Source of the DNA: a phage | DNA: 64,000 nt | Assembly (NCBI GenBank): GCA_020619395.1 | Contig: GCA_020619395.1_4860.1 | Strand: one strand, 5' to 3' | Shown: piece by piece, positions 405-43,698 of the stretch | How the letters are laid out: each line of letters begins with the position of its first letter | Numbering within the stretch: the first letter of the stretch is position 1 | Notes under the pieces: model-generated | What the model saw: the letters and a program-made list of their open reading frames with translations, nothing else | The model's database searches: none | What the model was told of the DNA's origin: nothing | Made by a program: the position numbers and the translations under genes

Positions 405-2039
405 TTAAGAATTAAACCATTCAACTTCTTCTAACTTGCGACGTGCATTCAACACCATAAACTCCGCCAGGCTATTGTGCAGTGACAAGTGAGGTATATA
501 GTTTGGCTGATCCGTCTCACACTTCAGCAGCGCAGCTGCTTCTGGTGTAGCCCTGAGATGGAACAGATACGGGTTGATGTGATCCTTGTGTAACAAGGTC
601 AATGATTCCCGTGGTGTAGATTGCGGTTCGAGATTACGCGGGTTGCGATACTCCTGAAGATAATATCTATCTAAATCTGCTTTGAGTTCAGATCGAATTG
701 GGTCGGCTGCATAACCGGCAGACATCTCAGAACGCACCATATTGCAACTTAACAGTTGCGCAACGTCATACATTCCATAATTGAGATAAGTTGCCTGTGC
801 CAACGCCATACCGTAGCGAAACGCTTCTGGTCCACATTCAGTATACGTCTTATAATGCGCGCTACGATGGAGTGCTAATGCGACTAACCATTCGTGCAAC
901 GTATAGACAGGACCGTCATGTGTTGCCAGTTGCGAATCAATCAATAACTTAACATCTGCTGGAGCGGCATTATCCAGACGCATTGTTTTCAAGAAAGAGC
1001 GGTATTCTTTAAATACGTACTCGGTACGGACGTATTCTTTCATCTGTGCAGGAGAACGTGCCTGCACCAAATCCATGGCGTTTATCTTACCCTTTTCGCC
1101 ATTGAATACCACACTTTCCGGATGCGCTTTTAACAGCACCGGCTGGTTAGAGATTTTGTTTGCAAAACCTGTTTCAATCTCTTGTTTAACCAGAAAATAC
1201 ATGCCGGTGACGATATTGTTGTTAACCATGATTTCAACCGGTAATTCACCACCGACTTCACGGACAGCCAACAATTTAATAATAGCATACGCCAGGATAT
1301 AATCTTCCATCATATCCGTGCCATAGCCCCGCACCGTAGCCAGTACCGACAAACTGGTGCTGTTCGTACCTTTGTTTGCCAGTTCTTTTTCTACCTTTTC
1401 CATCACTGTCTGTAGGAACCCACGCAGTTTCGGAATAGCAGGTAAAGACATGACTTCCGTGTCTTGAAGCATCTCCAGACAGTATGTCAGATTGTACACC
1501 ATTTTCCGGTGTGTTTCGATTGGCAAGTTCTTACCTATCGGGAACGTCCCCATGGTGAGGAACACCGGAATATACGGTTTAATCATCAGGACCAGTATCA
1601 ACAACTCGTAATAGTCCGGACGAATGTACGTCATCGCTTCCGGATAATTACTGTTCATTTCATCGTGCGTATCTTCCATGTTCTGCGGAATCCACAGCTT
1701 ATCGATGGGATACAGCTTACGATACACTTCGGCCTTGTGGAACTTCGCAATCGTCTGCACAATCTTCGGCATGTGCTTACGCTGCGTTTCCGTCGATTCG
1801 TTTGCCAGCTCGTCCAGCATCAGATACGCCATGAACAGTTCATCTTGTTCGTCTGGCGTTAAATAATCCCACACGCGTTGTAATTCCATGAAGAGAATGT
1901 TGTCGCGTGCAATCTGTTTACCTTTAACAGTGATGTAGTCGGGTGCGTTGTTATCCTTCCGATAACGTAAGCCAATAAATGTGACCTCTTGACCATGATG
2001 CTCGATTGTCATCCGGTCTTTAATCTTCATAATTTTCAT
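405..2039 (-). CDS. hypothetical protein (544 aa)
   Basis: long ORF; GGAG about 8 nt upstream of ATG; promoter-like motif at 2075-2089. Confidence 0.7.
   Translation of the reverse strand: MKIMKIKDRMTIEHHGQEVTFIGLRYRKDNNAPDYITVKGKQIARDNILFMELQRVWDYLTPDEQDELFMAYLMLDELANESTETQRKHMPKIVQTIAKFHKAEVYRKLYPIDKLWIPQNMEDTHDEMNSNYPEAMTYIRPDYYELLILVLMIKPYIPVFLTMGTFPIGKNLPIETHRKMVYNLTYCLEMLQDTEVMSLPAIPKLRGFLQTVMEKVEKELANKGTNSTSLSVLATVRGYGTDMMEDYILAYAIIKLLAVREVGGELPVEIMVNNNIVTGMYFLVKQEIETGFANKISNQPVLLKAHPESVVFNGEKGKINAMDLVQARSPAQMKEYVRTEYVFKEYRSFLKTMRLDNAAPADVKLLIDSQLATHDGPVYTLHEWLVALALHRSAHYKTYTECGPEAFRYGMALAQATYLNYGMYDVAQLLSCNMVRSEMSAGYAADPIRSELKADLDRYYLQEYRNPRNLEPQSTPRESLTLLHKDHINPYLFHLRATPEAAALLKCETDQPNYIPHLSLHNSLAEFMVLNARRKLEEVEWFNS
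657..671. promoter_or_regulatory. copy of recurrent promoter-like motif AGATAATATCTATCT, inside the 3' end of the 405-2039 ORF
   Basis: exact match to the motif found in five intergenic sites; lies 265 bp upstream of the gene starting at 392. Confidence 0.3.
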
Positions 2040-2074
2040 TATAGTTGAACTCCGCGAATAGTCGATTGCACTGA

Positions 2075-2089
2075 GATAATATCTATCTC
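2075..2089. promoter_or_regulatory. promoter-like motif AGATAATATCTATCT
   Basis: intergenic, 36 bp from the start codon at 2039; same 15-mer as at 657. Confidence 0.4.
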
Positions 2090-10134: not shown

Positions 10135-10180
10135 TTTAAATATTCCTTAATAGTGATTGCAATCATAGTTCGGTTCGCAG

Positions 10181-10273: not shown

Positions 10274-10288
10274 AGATAATATCAATCT
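10274..10288. promoter_or_regulatory. promoter-like motif AGATAATATCAATCT, upstream of the plus-strand gene at 10341
   Basis: second copy in the same divergent intergenic region. Confidence 0.4.
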
Positions 10289-18153: not shown

Positions 18154-18183
18154 CGAGAAATGCTCCTTAAGGATAATTCACGA

Positions 18184-18198
18184 AGATAATATCTATGC
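18184..18198. promoter_or_regulatory. promoter-like motif AGATAATATCTATGC in a divergent intergenic region
   Basis: same motif family; sits between the minus start at 18153 and the plus start at 18317. Confidence 0.4.
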
Positions 18199-21090: not shown

Positions 21091-21150
21091 GATGCTTACC
21101 TTTTATAGTCGAGTTGGGGGAATTCAGATGAGGCTTTCTCATCTCACTTA

Positions 21151-21165
21151 GGTAATATCTATCTG
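21151..21165. promoter_or_regulatory. promoter-like motif GGTAATATCTATCTG (variant)
   Basis: shares the core TAATATCTATCT; about 60 bp upstream of the start at 21090. Confidence 0.35.
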
Positions 21166-22511: not shown

Positions 22512-22592
22512 GGGGCGAGCAAACGGACGGATTCGAACCGTCGAAATATCCGATTATGAGTCGGGTGTTAATTCCTCTAACTTCGCTGCTCT
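22512..22592 (-). tRNA. tRNA-like sequence, anticodon CAU (Met or Ile2); non-canonical acceptor stem
   Basis: minus-strand T-arm GACGG-TTCGAAT-CCGTC, anticodon stem-loop CCGA-CTCATAA-TCGG and D-arm GTTA-GAGGAAT-TAAC found by hand; acceptor pairing imperfect. Confidence 0.35.
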
Positions 22593-22661
22593 TGCTTTGA
22601 CCGGACTCGAACCGGCGACCTTCCTCGAAGAGGTTGCTCTACCTACCTGAGCTACAAAGCC
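22592..22661 (-). tRNA. tRNA-like sequence; anticodon loop TTCGAGG (possible CGA) with a very short variable region
   Basis: minus-strand acceptor GGCTTTG/CAAAGC, D-arm GCTC...GAGC, T-arm GCCGG-TTCGAGT-CCGGT; isotype not resolved. Confidence 0.35.
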
Positions 22662-24013: not shown

Positions 24014-24089
24014 TGGCGGGGGCACGAGGTTTCGAACCTCGAACCTTCGGTTTTGGAGACCGGTGCGCTACCAATTGCGCCATACCCCC
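24014..24089 (-). tRNA. tRNA-Trp (anticodon CCA), 76 nt with encoded CCA end
   Basis: hand fold: acceptor GGGGGTA/TGCCCCC, D-arm GCGC-AATTGGTA-GCGC, anticodon loop CTCCAAA, T-arm CGAGG-TTCGAAA-CCTCG; anticodon arm identical to E. coli tRNA-Trp except one base. Confidence 0.8.
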
Positions 24090-25246: not shown

Positions 25247-26189
25247 GGTTTAATTCTCCGTTTGGTTTATCATACCTCACGCAGAATCTGTAAATTTTAA
25301 TCAGCCAGGTACCGTCGTTTCTCAACGGGAGTACCCACCCCTCTCGTCTATTCCGAGCCGTCAAGATCCGATCACCCCACTTTGGAGTTATCCCCCAAGT
25401 CTGCGGTTCTACACGCAGACCCCTTTTCGACGCAACGCCGAATTCGAATCAGTTTTGGCCCGACGCCAGAGCGGAATCAGCGATAACTATCGGAGGTAAG
25501 TTCAACGACGTCTCTCCGCTGCCCAGTCCTCTGGCGCTGCCACGGTCAACTCGGATTTTGTCATGGGTGCGCAGTCGACTTTCTCGACACTCTCGCAAAC
25601 CGAACTACGCCCGACGTAGCACCGTCGGCAGGTCGGTTATTTACCGAGTACCTGAATGGGTGGTGATTGTCGGAATCCCCGCCGACGCTCACCGGTTCTG
25701 TTCCACGGCGAAAGTTTTCCAGAACATAATAAATCACGCAGTGTTAGATTGCGCTTTGTCGAAGACACCACGGTAGGTATTTTCGAAAAAGCGTCCTGGG
25801 TATCAGTCCCAGGACTTGGAGCCCTAGCGTGCAGGGTTTAAAAGTGATTGGACCATTGGCGCGGTCAATCGCTATTCGCATATAACAACAAACTCACGTA
25901 ATCAAAAAATTACCGGCTCGAGGCGTAGGCGTCCAGGAGCCGGTGAGTCACACAGCAGTGAGTCCCTCTGCGGGGATTTTCGTGGAGCTTGTCGTTGGAA
26001 TAAAAATCCGTCCCCGGACGGGTTGGTGTTGTGGGTCGACTTGTCAGAGTCTACCGACCAGGGAGGCGACCACCGAAGCTATGGGTTTTGGACATCGAGT
26101 GGTGGTCTGAACACACGATAGGGAAACCACGTAAAAAATACACAGGGTACCCAAACTAGGACTTCCGTCCGATCACGATCTCTTAATAA

Positions 26190-26400
26190 GGATCACGCGC
26201 GCGCCTGCACGCGTTTTAAGATCTTAATATATTAATATATTTATTTATATAAATAATTATAATAATTAAATATAATACCTAAAGGTATTATTATATTTAA
26301 TATTATTATATATCTTTTAAAAGATCCTGGAGGATACGGGTGTGCGCACGCGCACGCGTATAAGGAAAGGGTCTTCGACCCGATCCACAGGATCAATCTA
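26190..26400. other. candidate replication origin / DNA-unwinding element: about 115 bp of nearly pure AT with palindromes, flanked by alternating CG tracts, GATC sites and a DnaA-box-like ATCCACA
   Basis: CACGCGCGCGCCTGCACGCG at the left; perfect 12-bp palindromes TTAAGATCTTAA and TCTTTTAAAAGA; central AATACCTAAAGGTATT; GTGCGCACGCGCACGCG at the right; GATCCACAGGATC at 26380. Confidence 0.4.
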
Positions 26401-26959
26401 AAAAACAATCTAAGTGATTGTTTTAAAAAGAAATTTTGAGAATTAGATTAAATTATCCCCTAAGGGGGATTTTAGAGCGAGTTAAACAACCCAAAGAACT
26501 CGTAAGTAACCGACAGTGTGTGTCGGTTACAGAACGATCCAGTTTTCACCCAGACATGGCACGAAGTGCTACCCAACGTGTGATCGTCGTCGCCGGCCGC
26601 GACCGTCGTCCCGGAACCGAAACGGGAATGGCACTCTCGCGCTCTCAGCGGCCCGCTGGCGCGATTTTCCGGTATGGGGAACCCAAGTGTACTGGGTCTG
26701 AGTTAAATCTCGTTCTAGCGCTTTCTAGAGCGTTTTTAATAACTGGTTAAAAAACATACAATCCTGAATCCCCATTCCCTGAATTTCCTCGCCCCGACAA
26801 AAATAAATTCTCTGTCTCGATACATAACCCCCTCTAAAACGCACGTAACCGACCCTAGAAAACGATAAACTGCCAAAAACGAGCTACCCTACGTCGATAC
26901 CACCTAATCGTTTTCTGATGCTTCCCAGACCCCTTTAACCGGTTGGTTAAAAAGTAACC

Positions 26960-27009
26960 AAAAAAATAAAAAAAAATAAGATTGGCGTACTCCCCGAAGA
27001 GAGTACGCC
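26960..27009 (-). terminator. intrinsic terminator (GGCGTACTC...GAGTACGCC hairpin with long A-run on plus)
   Basis: hairpin immediately downstream of the gene ending at 27017. Confidence 0.55.
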
Positions 27010-27016
27010 TAGTGAC

Positions 27017-28670: not shown

Positions 28671-28742
28671 TGGGTAAAATCTCCTTCAGGTATACTCTCA
28701 GTATGATAACATATATCCGTAAATTTTTAGAGGTTTAGTGCC

Positions 28743-41230: not shown

Positions 41231-41285
41231 TGTAGCTCCAAAATCAAAAAAAAATAGGGCAGTCATAAGACCACCCCATTGTTTA

Positions 41286-41489: not shown

Positions 41490-41977
41490 TATTCGTCGTC
41501 TTCGTCTTCTTCATCGGTTGCCATCATGGACTTGGCAAACTCTTTACGCAGCTTGCCTTCCAACGCTTTAGACTTTGGAGAACCGAAACCGTAAGAGATG
41601 GACGCTGCCCATTCTTTCTGAGTTGGGTTTTCAGTAACCGGGCGAGAGAACACGGTAGAGAATGCTGCGTTACCGATATCCAGCGTTAAGTCCAGTGCAC
41701 CGATATCGCTATCCGCTTTCGCACGGTCAGCAATCAGACCACCGGCAACGCCACCGAACAGTTCAGTGAAGTTTGCGTCGTGCTGTCGCAGAGCGTCCGC
41801 GTCTTCCAGTGTGAAGCGATAGTCCACATCCCCAACTTTCGTTACGGGGAGTGTTTCTTCGTAAATCTTAACCAGCGGGTCGGCGTTCAGCGCCAGGTCT
41901 TCGGACAGGGTTGCTGCCGGCGTGTCCAGTTCAGCGATCAGTTTGTGCAGTGCTTTCATTGAAGTTACTTCAGCCAT
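41489..41977 (-). CDS. hypothetical acidic protein (162 aa)
   Basis: conserved leader CTTAAGGAATATTAAG-ATG; poly-acidic C-terminus. Confidence 0.6.
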   Translation of the reverse strand: MAEVTSMKALHKLIAELDTPAATLSEDLALNADPLVKIYEETLPVTKVGDVDYRFTLEDADALRQHDANFTELFGGVAGGLIADRAKADSDIGALDLTLDIGNAAFSTVFSRPVTENPTQKEWAASISYGFGSPKSKALEGKLRKEFAKSMMATDEEDEDDE

Positions 41978-42003
41978 CTTAATATTCCTTAAGGTCAGTG
42001 TGA

Positions 42004-42675: not shown

Positions 42676-42709
42676 GTAAATATTCCTTACGATAATGGTC
42701 GATTAACTA

Positions 42710-43552: not shown

Positions 43553-43698
43553 TGTAAATACTCCTTCTGGGTAATAGTCGATTAAAGCGTTAACGTGTAA
43601 CGCTCACCTAAGTAATATATATCTCAGTTCTTTTTGAATGCAATTAATAAAATAAAAAGACTCACCCGTATCCGAAGATAGGATGAGCCTAGTGGAGC

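Follow-up and report, generated by a model that had tools for sequence, protein, structure and literature searches.

In a 64,000-nucleotide stretch of phage DNA (GenBank assembly GCA_020619395.1, contig GCA_020619395.1_4860.1), hereafter called the window, positions 41978 to 42003 raise the question of why several genes on the minus strand should be preceded by almost the same few nucleotides. Read on that strand these positions, TCACACTGACCTTAAGGAATATTAAG, fill all 26 nt that separate the ATG at 41977 from the stop codon (TAA, 42006-42004) of an HD-domain gene upstream, and they contain a Shine-Dalgarno (SD) core within a sequence that recurs in front of other genes. With moderate confidence, we propose that this leader, TTAAGGAG-TATTT-ATG, is the translation-initiation region of genes in predicted early operons, that is, those transcribed by the injected virion RNA polymerase (vRNAP). 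It is an ordinary kind of element, a ribosome-binding site (RBS), with an extended consensus that is specific to the clade and to one class of genes.

SPN3US-like Salmonella jumbo phages of the genus Seoulvirus match the window at 98-99.9% identity (99.9% for phage 1252, about 98% for SPN3US). The window is oriented as the reverse complement of the SPN3US record, whose ends it spans; genes on the minus strand of the window are plus-strand genes of SPN3US. The annotated SPN3US genome (240,413 bp, 264 coding sequences) served as the whole-genome reference and the diverged relative Erwinia phage Asesino (246,290 bp) as the comparison genome from a second genus. The gp numbers used below are gene indices in SPN3US and match the numbering of the literature (gp75 capsid, gp245 protease, gp256 sheath), and transcription units were approximated from distance and strand.

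The leader and its ribosome-binding anatomy

The motif AAGGARYATT matches the window six times; every match is on the minus strand and lies 3-5 nt before an ATG (Table 1). Chance would give 0.36 matches, and none of 100 dinucleotide shuffles reached six. The open reading frames behind these leaders encode proteins of 106-617 aa, all with PHROG families, and the final 3-5 nt before the ATG vary among them (TAAA, TACA, CTCG, AAG). The first-pass annotation had attributed the leader to at least seven genes; this stands for the six ATGs of Table 1 and fails for the looser site at 2834, which reads gaaaaggatgaaATG and is not a member. In Asesino the leader of gp22 persists as TTAAGGAATATTTACC, at a protein identity of 66%. 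A role of gp22 as the nuclear shell protein was considered and rejected, as its sequence matched no solved structure and Pfam and PHROGs give no function.

When averaged over all 264 SPN3US genes, the upstream profile is that of an ordinary SD followed by a mildly A/T-rich spacer. AGGA is present at -16 to -8 in 125 of the 264 coding sequences, and in 119 of these 125 the spacer from AGGAN to the ATG measures 5-9 nt. Genes with AGGA in this position were assigned to the leader class when at least 7 of the 8 flank positions of TTA-AGGA-RTATT were matched. Nineteen genes qualify, against 3.5 expected with independent columns and a maximum of 10 in 2000 column shuffles, and the leader therefore marks a distinct subclass and not merely the average RBS. 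The earlier proposal of an SD-containing initiation leader common to many genes beyond chance is thus borne out in the window and in the genome alike. Gene duplication as the source of the shared leader is ruled out, since no paralogy exists among the 19 proteins.

The 3' end of enterobacterial 16S rRNA reads ...CCUCCUUA-3', and the core UAAGGAG is the exact complement of its last 7 nt, placed at the usual SD spacing; the leaders contain UAAGGAG or UAAGGAA. The duplex formed with the anti-SD ACCUCCUUA amounts to -7.9 kcal/mol in the leader class and -6.25 kcal/mol in the remaining genes, a difference that is partly there by construction, and the fold over -30 to +30 is weaker in the leader class (-5.1 versus -8.4 kcal/mol, p=2e-5). 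A strong duplex and a weak fold are properties of a strong, open translation-initiation region, and the leader has every sequence feature of an SD initiation region. Several copies are found in gaps of 10-26 nt within operons and, in the case of SPN3US gp31, gp32, gp210 and gp212 (gaps of 10-13 nt), the stop codon of the upstream gene is embedded in TAAGGAG or TGAAGGAG.

Two further searches concerned other kinds of element. For the palindrome CCTTAAGG/CTTAAG a function in DNA binding or restriction was considered: the genome has 42 copies of CTTAAG against 46.6 expected, hence no enrichment, and 16 of them simply lie at RBSs, while CCTTAAGG is modestly enriched (8 versus 2.2), and a DNA-level role finds no support. 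A scan of the window with Rfam 15 gave nothing at the leader or cassette-hairpin sites at gathering score, tRNAs being the only matches.

Early-like boxes and the distribution of the leader

The first genes that carry the leader have an AT-rich GATAGATATTATC box 44-279 nt upstream. About 22 copies of this box occur in SPN3US, with the consensus aaannTTTCA-GATAGATATTATCT-nnGTGAG, and at least 16 copies with the flank aaannTTTCA in Asesino. The window contains seven copies (GATAGATATTAYC); they all stand on its minus strand and have T-rich sequence upstream. The box in front of gp249 heads a five-gene unit (43552-41286) that holds three of the leaders, and at gp9 about 13 nt separate the conserved GTGA behind the box from the leader.

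Early promoters of phage phiKZ consist of an extended -10 element with a T-rich stretch upstream (PMC8244752), and an early motif can be found bioinformatically in every jumbo phage that encodes RNA polymerases, unlike middle and late motifs (PMC7598289). The AT-rich box has the sequence features of such a vRNAP promoter, being about 10 nt of AT-rich sequence with a T-rich upstream region, present in tens of copies and placed before operons of the non-virion RNA polymerase (nvRNAP). It precedes the gp34-35 nvRNAP unit, the gp76-78 unit with the nvRNAP beta gene gp77, and the gene of a 544-aa protein (window 405-2039, minus strand) which is distantly homologous to gp68 of phiKZ, the fifth, sigma-like nvRNAP subunit (PDB 7ogp_B, E=2.8e-6). 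The RefSeq start of this last gene is shorter; the ATG at 2039 is preceded by a TCGACTATT box and GGAG. In contrast, the SPN3US vRNAP genes gp240/241, gp218 and gp42 have no AT-rich box directly upstream (subunit assignments from PMC5105663). The absence of the box before vRNAP genes and its presence before nvRNAP genes match the phiKZ rule that nvRNAP genes are early. From the analogy with phiKZ and the genes that it precedes, the AT-rich box is probably an early promoter, and the label "early" as used here is based on motif resemblance and gene content.

Among the genes of these units, SPN3US gp78 (75564-77240, outside the window) belongs to the leader class and lies just downstream of gp77. 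Its amber mutant fails to produce many virion proteins, and a regulatory role has been suggested for it (Thomas et al. 2016, PMC5105663).

We called a gene early-proximal if an early-like box on its strand lies at most 5 kb upstream of it and no gene of opposite orientation intervenes. In SPN3US the leader class comprises 19 of the 110 early-proximal genes and none of the 154 others (p=2e-8); at a limit of 3 kb the figures are 17/85 and 2/179. Since plain AGGA is equally common in both groups (47% each), and GC content (0.473 early-proximal versus 0.486 others, 1.3 points) and spacer A/T (0.65 versus 0.60) differ little, this correlation is not explained by composition. Anchored on AGGA, the context of early-proximal genes is C.56 T.47 T.55 A.76-AGGA-G.60 T.51 A.69 T.58 T.51, whereas that of the others is nearly flat, and the word GGA[GA]TAT is found in 19/110 and 2/154 genes, respectively (p=2e-6). 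An annotation-free replicate in Asesino gave the leader at 8 of 51 sites near a box and 0 of 110 elsewhere (p=7e-5), and the commonest SD-context word in both genomes is AAGGAGTAT(T/G). Moreover, no annotated virion or morphogenesis gene of SPN3US has the leader (0/48, versus 19/216 of the other genes; p=0.03). Correlation with an expression class had been named in the first-pass annotation as a test of its own proposal; such a correlation is present, and the class is the predicted early one.

These results bear on the proposal itself, according to which the leader would be a very short promoter at the transcription start, of the phiKZ late type, or else a shared primary 5' end or processing site at AAGGAGTATT. 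Shortness is no ground for dismissal, as the phiKZ late element is just T(-3)ATG(+1), all four bases of which are required, recognised by the nvRNAP beta-like subunit (PMC7598289, PMC12809450). The correlation with an expression class also speaks for it, and the predicted early start of the first genes lies about 13-50 nt upstream of the leader. In addition, GU|AUU within the leader would fit the loose RNase E consensus, RN|WUU. Nevertheless TATG is present in only 2 of the 19 leaders and in none of the six of the window, T at -1 occurs in none, no sigma-70-like match falls at the leader sites, and the associated class is the predicted early one, virion genes being without the leader. Transcripts begun within the leader would lack the SD, the most strongly conserved stretch of the upstream region, and the 5' untranslated regions (UTRs) of phiKZ are mostly 31-40 nt long with no leaderless transcripts (PMC8244752). 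The copies inside operons with embedded stop codons, and the separate and better conserved promoter-like boxes upstream, likewise argue against a shared transcript start. We consider a promoter, 5' end or processing site at the leader very improbable, and taking the leader for an RBS, not for a new kind of promoter, corrects this first reading.

The comparison of orthologous starts gives the same picture of an SD that is kept while its surroundings drift. In 182 SPN3US/Asesino ortholog pairs the identity at -13 to -8 is 0.60-0.68 over a baseline of about 0.40, and with AGGA as the anchor it reaches 0.85 at position -1 and 0.69 at +4. About 8 of 12 Asesino orthologs of leader-class genes keep cTTAAGGAGTAT, at protein identities of 44-66%.

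Several observations weigh against a translation-initiation region selected in early operons. "Early" is a prediction, because no promoter, transcription-start or transcript map for SPN3US-like phages turned up in the literature searched; early motifs for such phages were reportedly predicted by Lavysh et al. in 2016. The consensus and the class were defined on one and the same genome, which is partly offset by the column shuffles and the Asesino replicate. Pairing with 16S rRNA accounts for UAAGGAG only and leaves the preference for C-T-T on its 5' side and the ordered T-A-T-T on its 3' side unexplained. Major capsid gp75 and tail sheath gp256, the late proteins made in greatest amount, are without the leader, and therefore a strong RBS for abundant proteins cannot explain everything. 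Genome-wide, the spacer identity between orthologs (0.53-0.62) is barely above the background of 0.45-0.55. At the 41978-42003 locus itself, three genes keep the SD core and not the spacer in their orthologs from SPAsTU, Asesino, phiEaH2 and Huxley (spacers TATTTACA / CATTAAA / CACCTT / CTTTATC / TAAACA), and the Erwinia orthologs of the leader at ATG 41977 retain the AAGGA core and an A/T-rich spacer alone. Since about 8 of 12 orthologs keep cTTAAGGAGTAT while the genome-wide spacer is close to background, the extension is maintained at many genes without being essential at each.

The weak genome-wide footprint of the spacer would also suit a simpler account, in which there is only an ordinary SD, and what is shared beyond it comes from common descent or concerted evolution of early cassettes, copied between early genes by recombination, together with the slightly lower GC content of early regions. 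A cassette of about 70 nt is in fact repeated before at least six unrelated SPN3US genes, with 45 distinct versions across the clade, and early-proximal genes are slightly more A/T-rich, as seen above. However, half of the leader-class genes have no cassette and stand in the 10-26 nt gaps inside operons, sharing only about 12 nt, and the spacers of the two classes differ little in A/T. The same preference arises independently in Asesino, and about 8 of 12 orthologs retain TAT, a word that neutral drift to about 50% identity per site would leave intact in roughly 1 in 8. This account seems to us decidedly unlikely.

Under the translation-initiation reading which we prefer, UAAGGAG would pair with the last 7 nt of 16S rRNA; between it and the AUG would come 6-9 nt of U-A-U-U-rich spacer with little structure. 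The leader would thus act at the RNA level, through efficient recruitment of 30S subunits, and would serve both the first genes behind an early promoter and the internal genes of early polycistronic mRNAs, at which a previous stop codon near or within the motif would permit coupling or re-initiation. The transcription signals would be separate and lie upstream, in the form of the AT-rich GATAGATATTATC box, followed in some cases by a 5' hairpin and an (A)ATCGACYATTA box. We infer that strong initiation on early mRNAs, which have to compete with those of the host as infection begins, is what the extended context is selected for. Such competition is one hypothesis for the restriction to the early class, a dedicated factor being the other. 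In practice, the extended context together with the AT-rich box provides a cheap sequence marker for sorting the genes of SPN3US-like phages into predicted early units. If these units are early, the early genes of the clade share an initiation region that is absent from the late genes, and post-transcriptional control becomes testable in a tractable Salmonella jumbo phage.

Hairpin and GACYAT box of the predicted early cassette

The fullest set of upstream elements in the window is that of gp249. Along the minus strand a terminator-like hairpin is followed by the box GATATATATTACT, by TAGGTGAG, by a second hairpin, by the SD-adjacent box AATCGACTATTA and by the leader, after which come five genes and another terminator-like hairpin with a T-run. 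Both terminator-like structures were seen by eye; a pattern scan covering 43646-43688 did not report the one that lies there. In IMG/VR the promoter box of this type of cassette, GATATATWTTACYTAGGTGAG, has 45 distinct versions, located on jumbo contigs of 107-246 kb and on one 7-kb fragment. Most of them are followed by a hairpin, and about one third then by a strict TCGACYAT-type box.

All 16 cassettes examined, from six phages, form a hairpin of 6-11 bp in the ~30 nt that directly follow GUGAG, at the same place and with different stems. The stems stay complementary (GAGAGTT/AACTCTC, GAGCGTTA/TAACGCT, GATAGA/TCTATC, GAGCATTG/CAATGCT), their sequences differing between paralogous and orthologous cassettes and yet pairing, which is covariation, whereas the stretch from the box to the AUG is mostly unpaired. 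The hairpins, which in the window lie at 43585-43605 and about 21125-21146 (minus strand), begin 0-4 nt after GUGAG. Stem-loops at the 5' terminus are known to shield mRNAs from 5'-end-dependent decay. If transcription starts near GTGAG, the cassette hairpin would likely be a 5'-terminal stem-loop of this kind on early mRNAs.

The box next to the SD has the consensus (A)ATCGAC(T/C)AT(T)A and is found before about 12 genes per genome in SPN3US and Asesino, in early-box units only. Of the 28 copies of TCGACYAT in SPN3US, 12 lie 21-39 nt before a gene start, as do 15 of the 24 copies in Asesino, where by our estimate about 0.3 would be expected from position alone. Before the HD-domain gene, SPAsTU, Asesino and phiEaH2 preserve the box as (T/C)CGACCATTA between diverged flanks, and before the gp68 homolog the stretch GTGCAATCGACTATTCGCGGAG is identical in Asesino. 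The box stands 0-5 nt from the SD and at a variable 39-77 nt from the promoter box, so that its place is set relative to the SD rather than to the promoter. This tight link would suit an RNA operator or processing site. A second promoter would instead be suited by the terminator-like hairpin that, at gp180 and gp184, separates the GACYAT box from the early box or the previous gene. On these sequence relations the GACYAT box could be either. Early and middle promoters can stand in tandem in phiKZ, as at PHIKZ054 (PMC8244752). In a further SPN3US cassette outside the window (165688-165785), a hairpin like an intrinsic terminator, with a T-run, separates the 5' hairpin from the GACYAT box; without read-through, early transcription would stop there and give an RNA of about 60 nt, and the arrangement resembles the 5' UTR terminators of phiKZ (PMC10914365).

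Known promoter types do not account well for TCGACYATTA. As an AR9-type late promoter (AACA-N6-TA, PMC7598289) its conserved TCGAC would fall in the unconserved N6, and the likeness is superficial. As a sigma-70 promoter (TTGACA-N16-18-TATAAT-like) it was rejected too, since between 41300 and 44400 there is one weak match, at no box, compared with 4.0 in shuffles. A phiKZ middle-type element (TACT centred at -22) is unlikely, because the start would fall at the AUG and phiKZ is without leaderless transcripts (PMC8244752).

In another explanation the leader, possibly with the GACYAT box, is a site on early mRNAs for a specific post-transcriptional factor that times or boosts early protein synthesis, such as a nuclease inactivation site like that of T4 RegB/S1, a translational repressor like RegA, or a selector of phage mRNAs. 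In its favour, the context is specific to a class and specific in sequence (the ordered T-A-T-T and C-T-T, beyond A/T-richness) in a way that 16S pairing leaves unexplained, the extended context is present in both genera and kept in many orthologs across them, and the neighbouring box is tied to the SD. T4 offers a precedent of an early-class consensus made of an SD and a defined 7-nt A/U-rich tail, GGAGRAYARAA (PMC1702504). On the other hand, no gene matches the T4 RegB/S1 consensus (the leader class scores 7.2/11 and the others 7.1/11), and membership of the leader among RegB/S1 targets is not supported. The RegB-type split of the SD, GGAG in early and GAGG in late genes, was not seen either, with GGAG usage of 0.39 and 0.40 in the two classes. 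Six window proteins were scanned, among which no candidate factor was identified, a RegB homolog not having been looked for, and at the 41978-42003 locus the three genes do not keep the spacer in their Erwinia orthologs.

In its widest form this explanation makes of the vRNAP promoter, the covarying 5' hairpin, the (A)ATCGACYATTA box and the CUUAAGGAGUAUU initiation region an "address" of early mRNAs, conserved across enterobacterial nucleus-forming jumbo phages (Seoulvirus, Erskinevirus, Machinavirus and uncultured relatives), of which the box and the extended SD would be read by a dedicated factor. The reader could be a second polymerase that starts just before the SD, which would make the box a sequence-defined middle-type promoter, or an RNA-binding regulator or nuclease. 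Middle-type promoter motifs have so far been missed by bioinformatics in this family of jumbo phages (PMC7598289). If true, the factor would time early protein synthesis or favour phage mRNAs on host ribosomes. We hold a dedicated factor, in the narrow and in the wide form, to be unlikely. The SD-adjacent GACYAT box and the 5' hairpin are conserved across genera in any case, and no description of them was found in the literature searched.

Other features of the window and comparison with known systems

Table 1. Leaders, early-like boxes, SD-adjacent boxes and hairpins of the window
Feature	Position	Strand	Context
Leader CTTAAGGAGTATTTAAA	393-409	-	AAGGARYATT at 397-406; before ATG 392 (gp31); 12-nt gap; upstream TAA stop inside TTAAGGAG
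Leader TTAAGGAATATTTAAA	10135-10150	-	AAGGARYATT at 10139-10148; before ATG 10134 (gp22, 617 aa)
Leader CCTTAAGGAGCATTTCTCG	18154-18172	-	AAGGARYATT at 18159-18168; before ATG 18153 (gp9)
Leader CCTTAAGGAATATTAAG	41994-41978	-	AAGGARYATT at 41981-41990; SD core AAGGAA 41990-41985; before ATG 41977
Leader GTAAGGAATATTTAC	42676-42690	-	AAGGARYATT at 42679-42688; before ATG 42675 (HD-domain protein, gp251)
Leader AAGGAGTATTTACA	43553-43566	-	AAGGARYATT at 43557-43566; before ATG 43552 (gp249); closes full early cassette
Early-like box GATAGATATTATC	659-671	-	Inside gp30 coding sequence, 279 nt upstream of ATG 392
Early-like box GATAGATATTATC (2087-2075), then directly AATCGACTATT (2067-2057)	2056-2087	-	Before ATG 2039
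Early-like box GATTGATATTATC	10275-10287	-	153 nt upstream of ATG 10134
Early-like box CATAGATATTATC	18185-18197	-	44 nt upstream of ATG 18153
Early-like box GATAGATATTACC (21163-21151), hairpin, TCGACTATAA (21112-21103)	21103-21163	-	Before ATG 21090 (gp5); cassette with weaker SD
Early-like box GATATATGTTATC	28705-28717	-	47 nt upstream of ATG 28670
Early-promoter-like box GATATATATTACT, T/A-rich upstream, then TAGGTGAG (likely start region)	43611-43623	-	gp249 cassette; resembles phiKZ early motif (PMC8244752)
Hairpin GAGCGTTA-cacgt-TAACGCTT	43585-43605	-	Predicted 5' end of early transcript
SD-adjacent box AATCGACTATTA	43572-43583	-	gp249 cassette
SD-adjacent box AATCGACCATTA	42693-42704	-	Before HD-domain gene
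GACYAT boxes, all four	43572-43583, 42693-42704, 2057-2067, 21103-21112	-	Conserved SD-adjacent consensus
Terminator-like hairpin GGGGTGGTC..GACTGCCCT with T-run	41246-41277	-	Ends five-gene early unit; by eye
Terminator-like hairpin CTCATCC..GGGTGAG with T-rich run	43646-43688	-	Upstream of early box, splits off preceding unit; by eye

Apart from these elements, Rfam places three tRNA genes on the minus strand of the window (22518-22589, 22592-22661 and 24017-24089). The weakest scores 30.6 bits against a gathering score of 29 and may be degenerate; the SPN3US record annotates "tRNA-OTHER" in the tRNA region. A non-coding stretch (25295-27010) contains, at 26190-26400, about 110 bp of pure A/T that are partly palindromic, bordered by GC tracts of alternating purines and pyrimidines (ACGCGTGCGCGTGCGCACAC, ACGCGTGCAGGCGCGCGCGTG) and by several GATC sites. 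This gene-free region of 1.7 kb coincides with the ends of the SPN3US record, and the A/T tract may be an origin or unwinding element or be related to packaging.

In comparison with known SD regions that have an A/U-rich spacer, such as that of T7 gene 10, the leader shares the 16S complement 5-9 nt from the AUG, the weak structure and the use in coupling. It differs from known strong phage RBSs in that its context is more fixed than pairing needs (C-T-T before, T-A-T-T after) and in that it follows one predicted temporal class and not protein abundance. With the phiKZ late promoter it has in common that both are short elements near gene starts in a related family of jumbo phages, but the leader has no TATG in the window, is absent from late or virion genes and contains an SD. 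It is the GATAGATATTATC box, and not the leader, that is like the early promoters of phiKZ, 201phi2-1 and AR9, being AT-rich with a T-rich flank and standing before nvRNAP genes (PMC8244752, PMC11512511, PMC7598289). The 5' UTRs predicted from it, of about 27-33 nt at boxes without a hairpin and about 50-55 nt at cassettes such as that of gp249, would be in or near the phiKZ range. Unlike in those phages, the box sequence is clade-specific and several copies have a 5' hairpin and an SD-adjacent GACYAT box downstream.

Two systems of phage T4 come close in other respects. In the PeSL cassettes of T4-type phages, modules of an early promoter and a stem-loop are repeated between early genes, and the present cassettes are alike in being such modules repeated before unrelated small early genes. 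What sets them apart is the order of the parts: the promoter comes first, then the hairpin at the transcript's predicted 5' end, then a conserved box and an RBS. The nearest class-specific precedent for the leader is the T4 RegB/S1 target, 11 nt of single-stranded SD and A/U-rich tail in early initiation regions (PMC1702504). As with that target, the leader is restricted to initiation regions of early transcripts, the class in our case being assigned by analogy, and the mechanism may be analogous, although the sequences differ, GGAG-UAUUUAA here standing against GGAG-AAUAAAA in T4.

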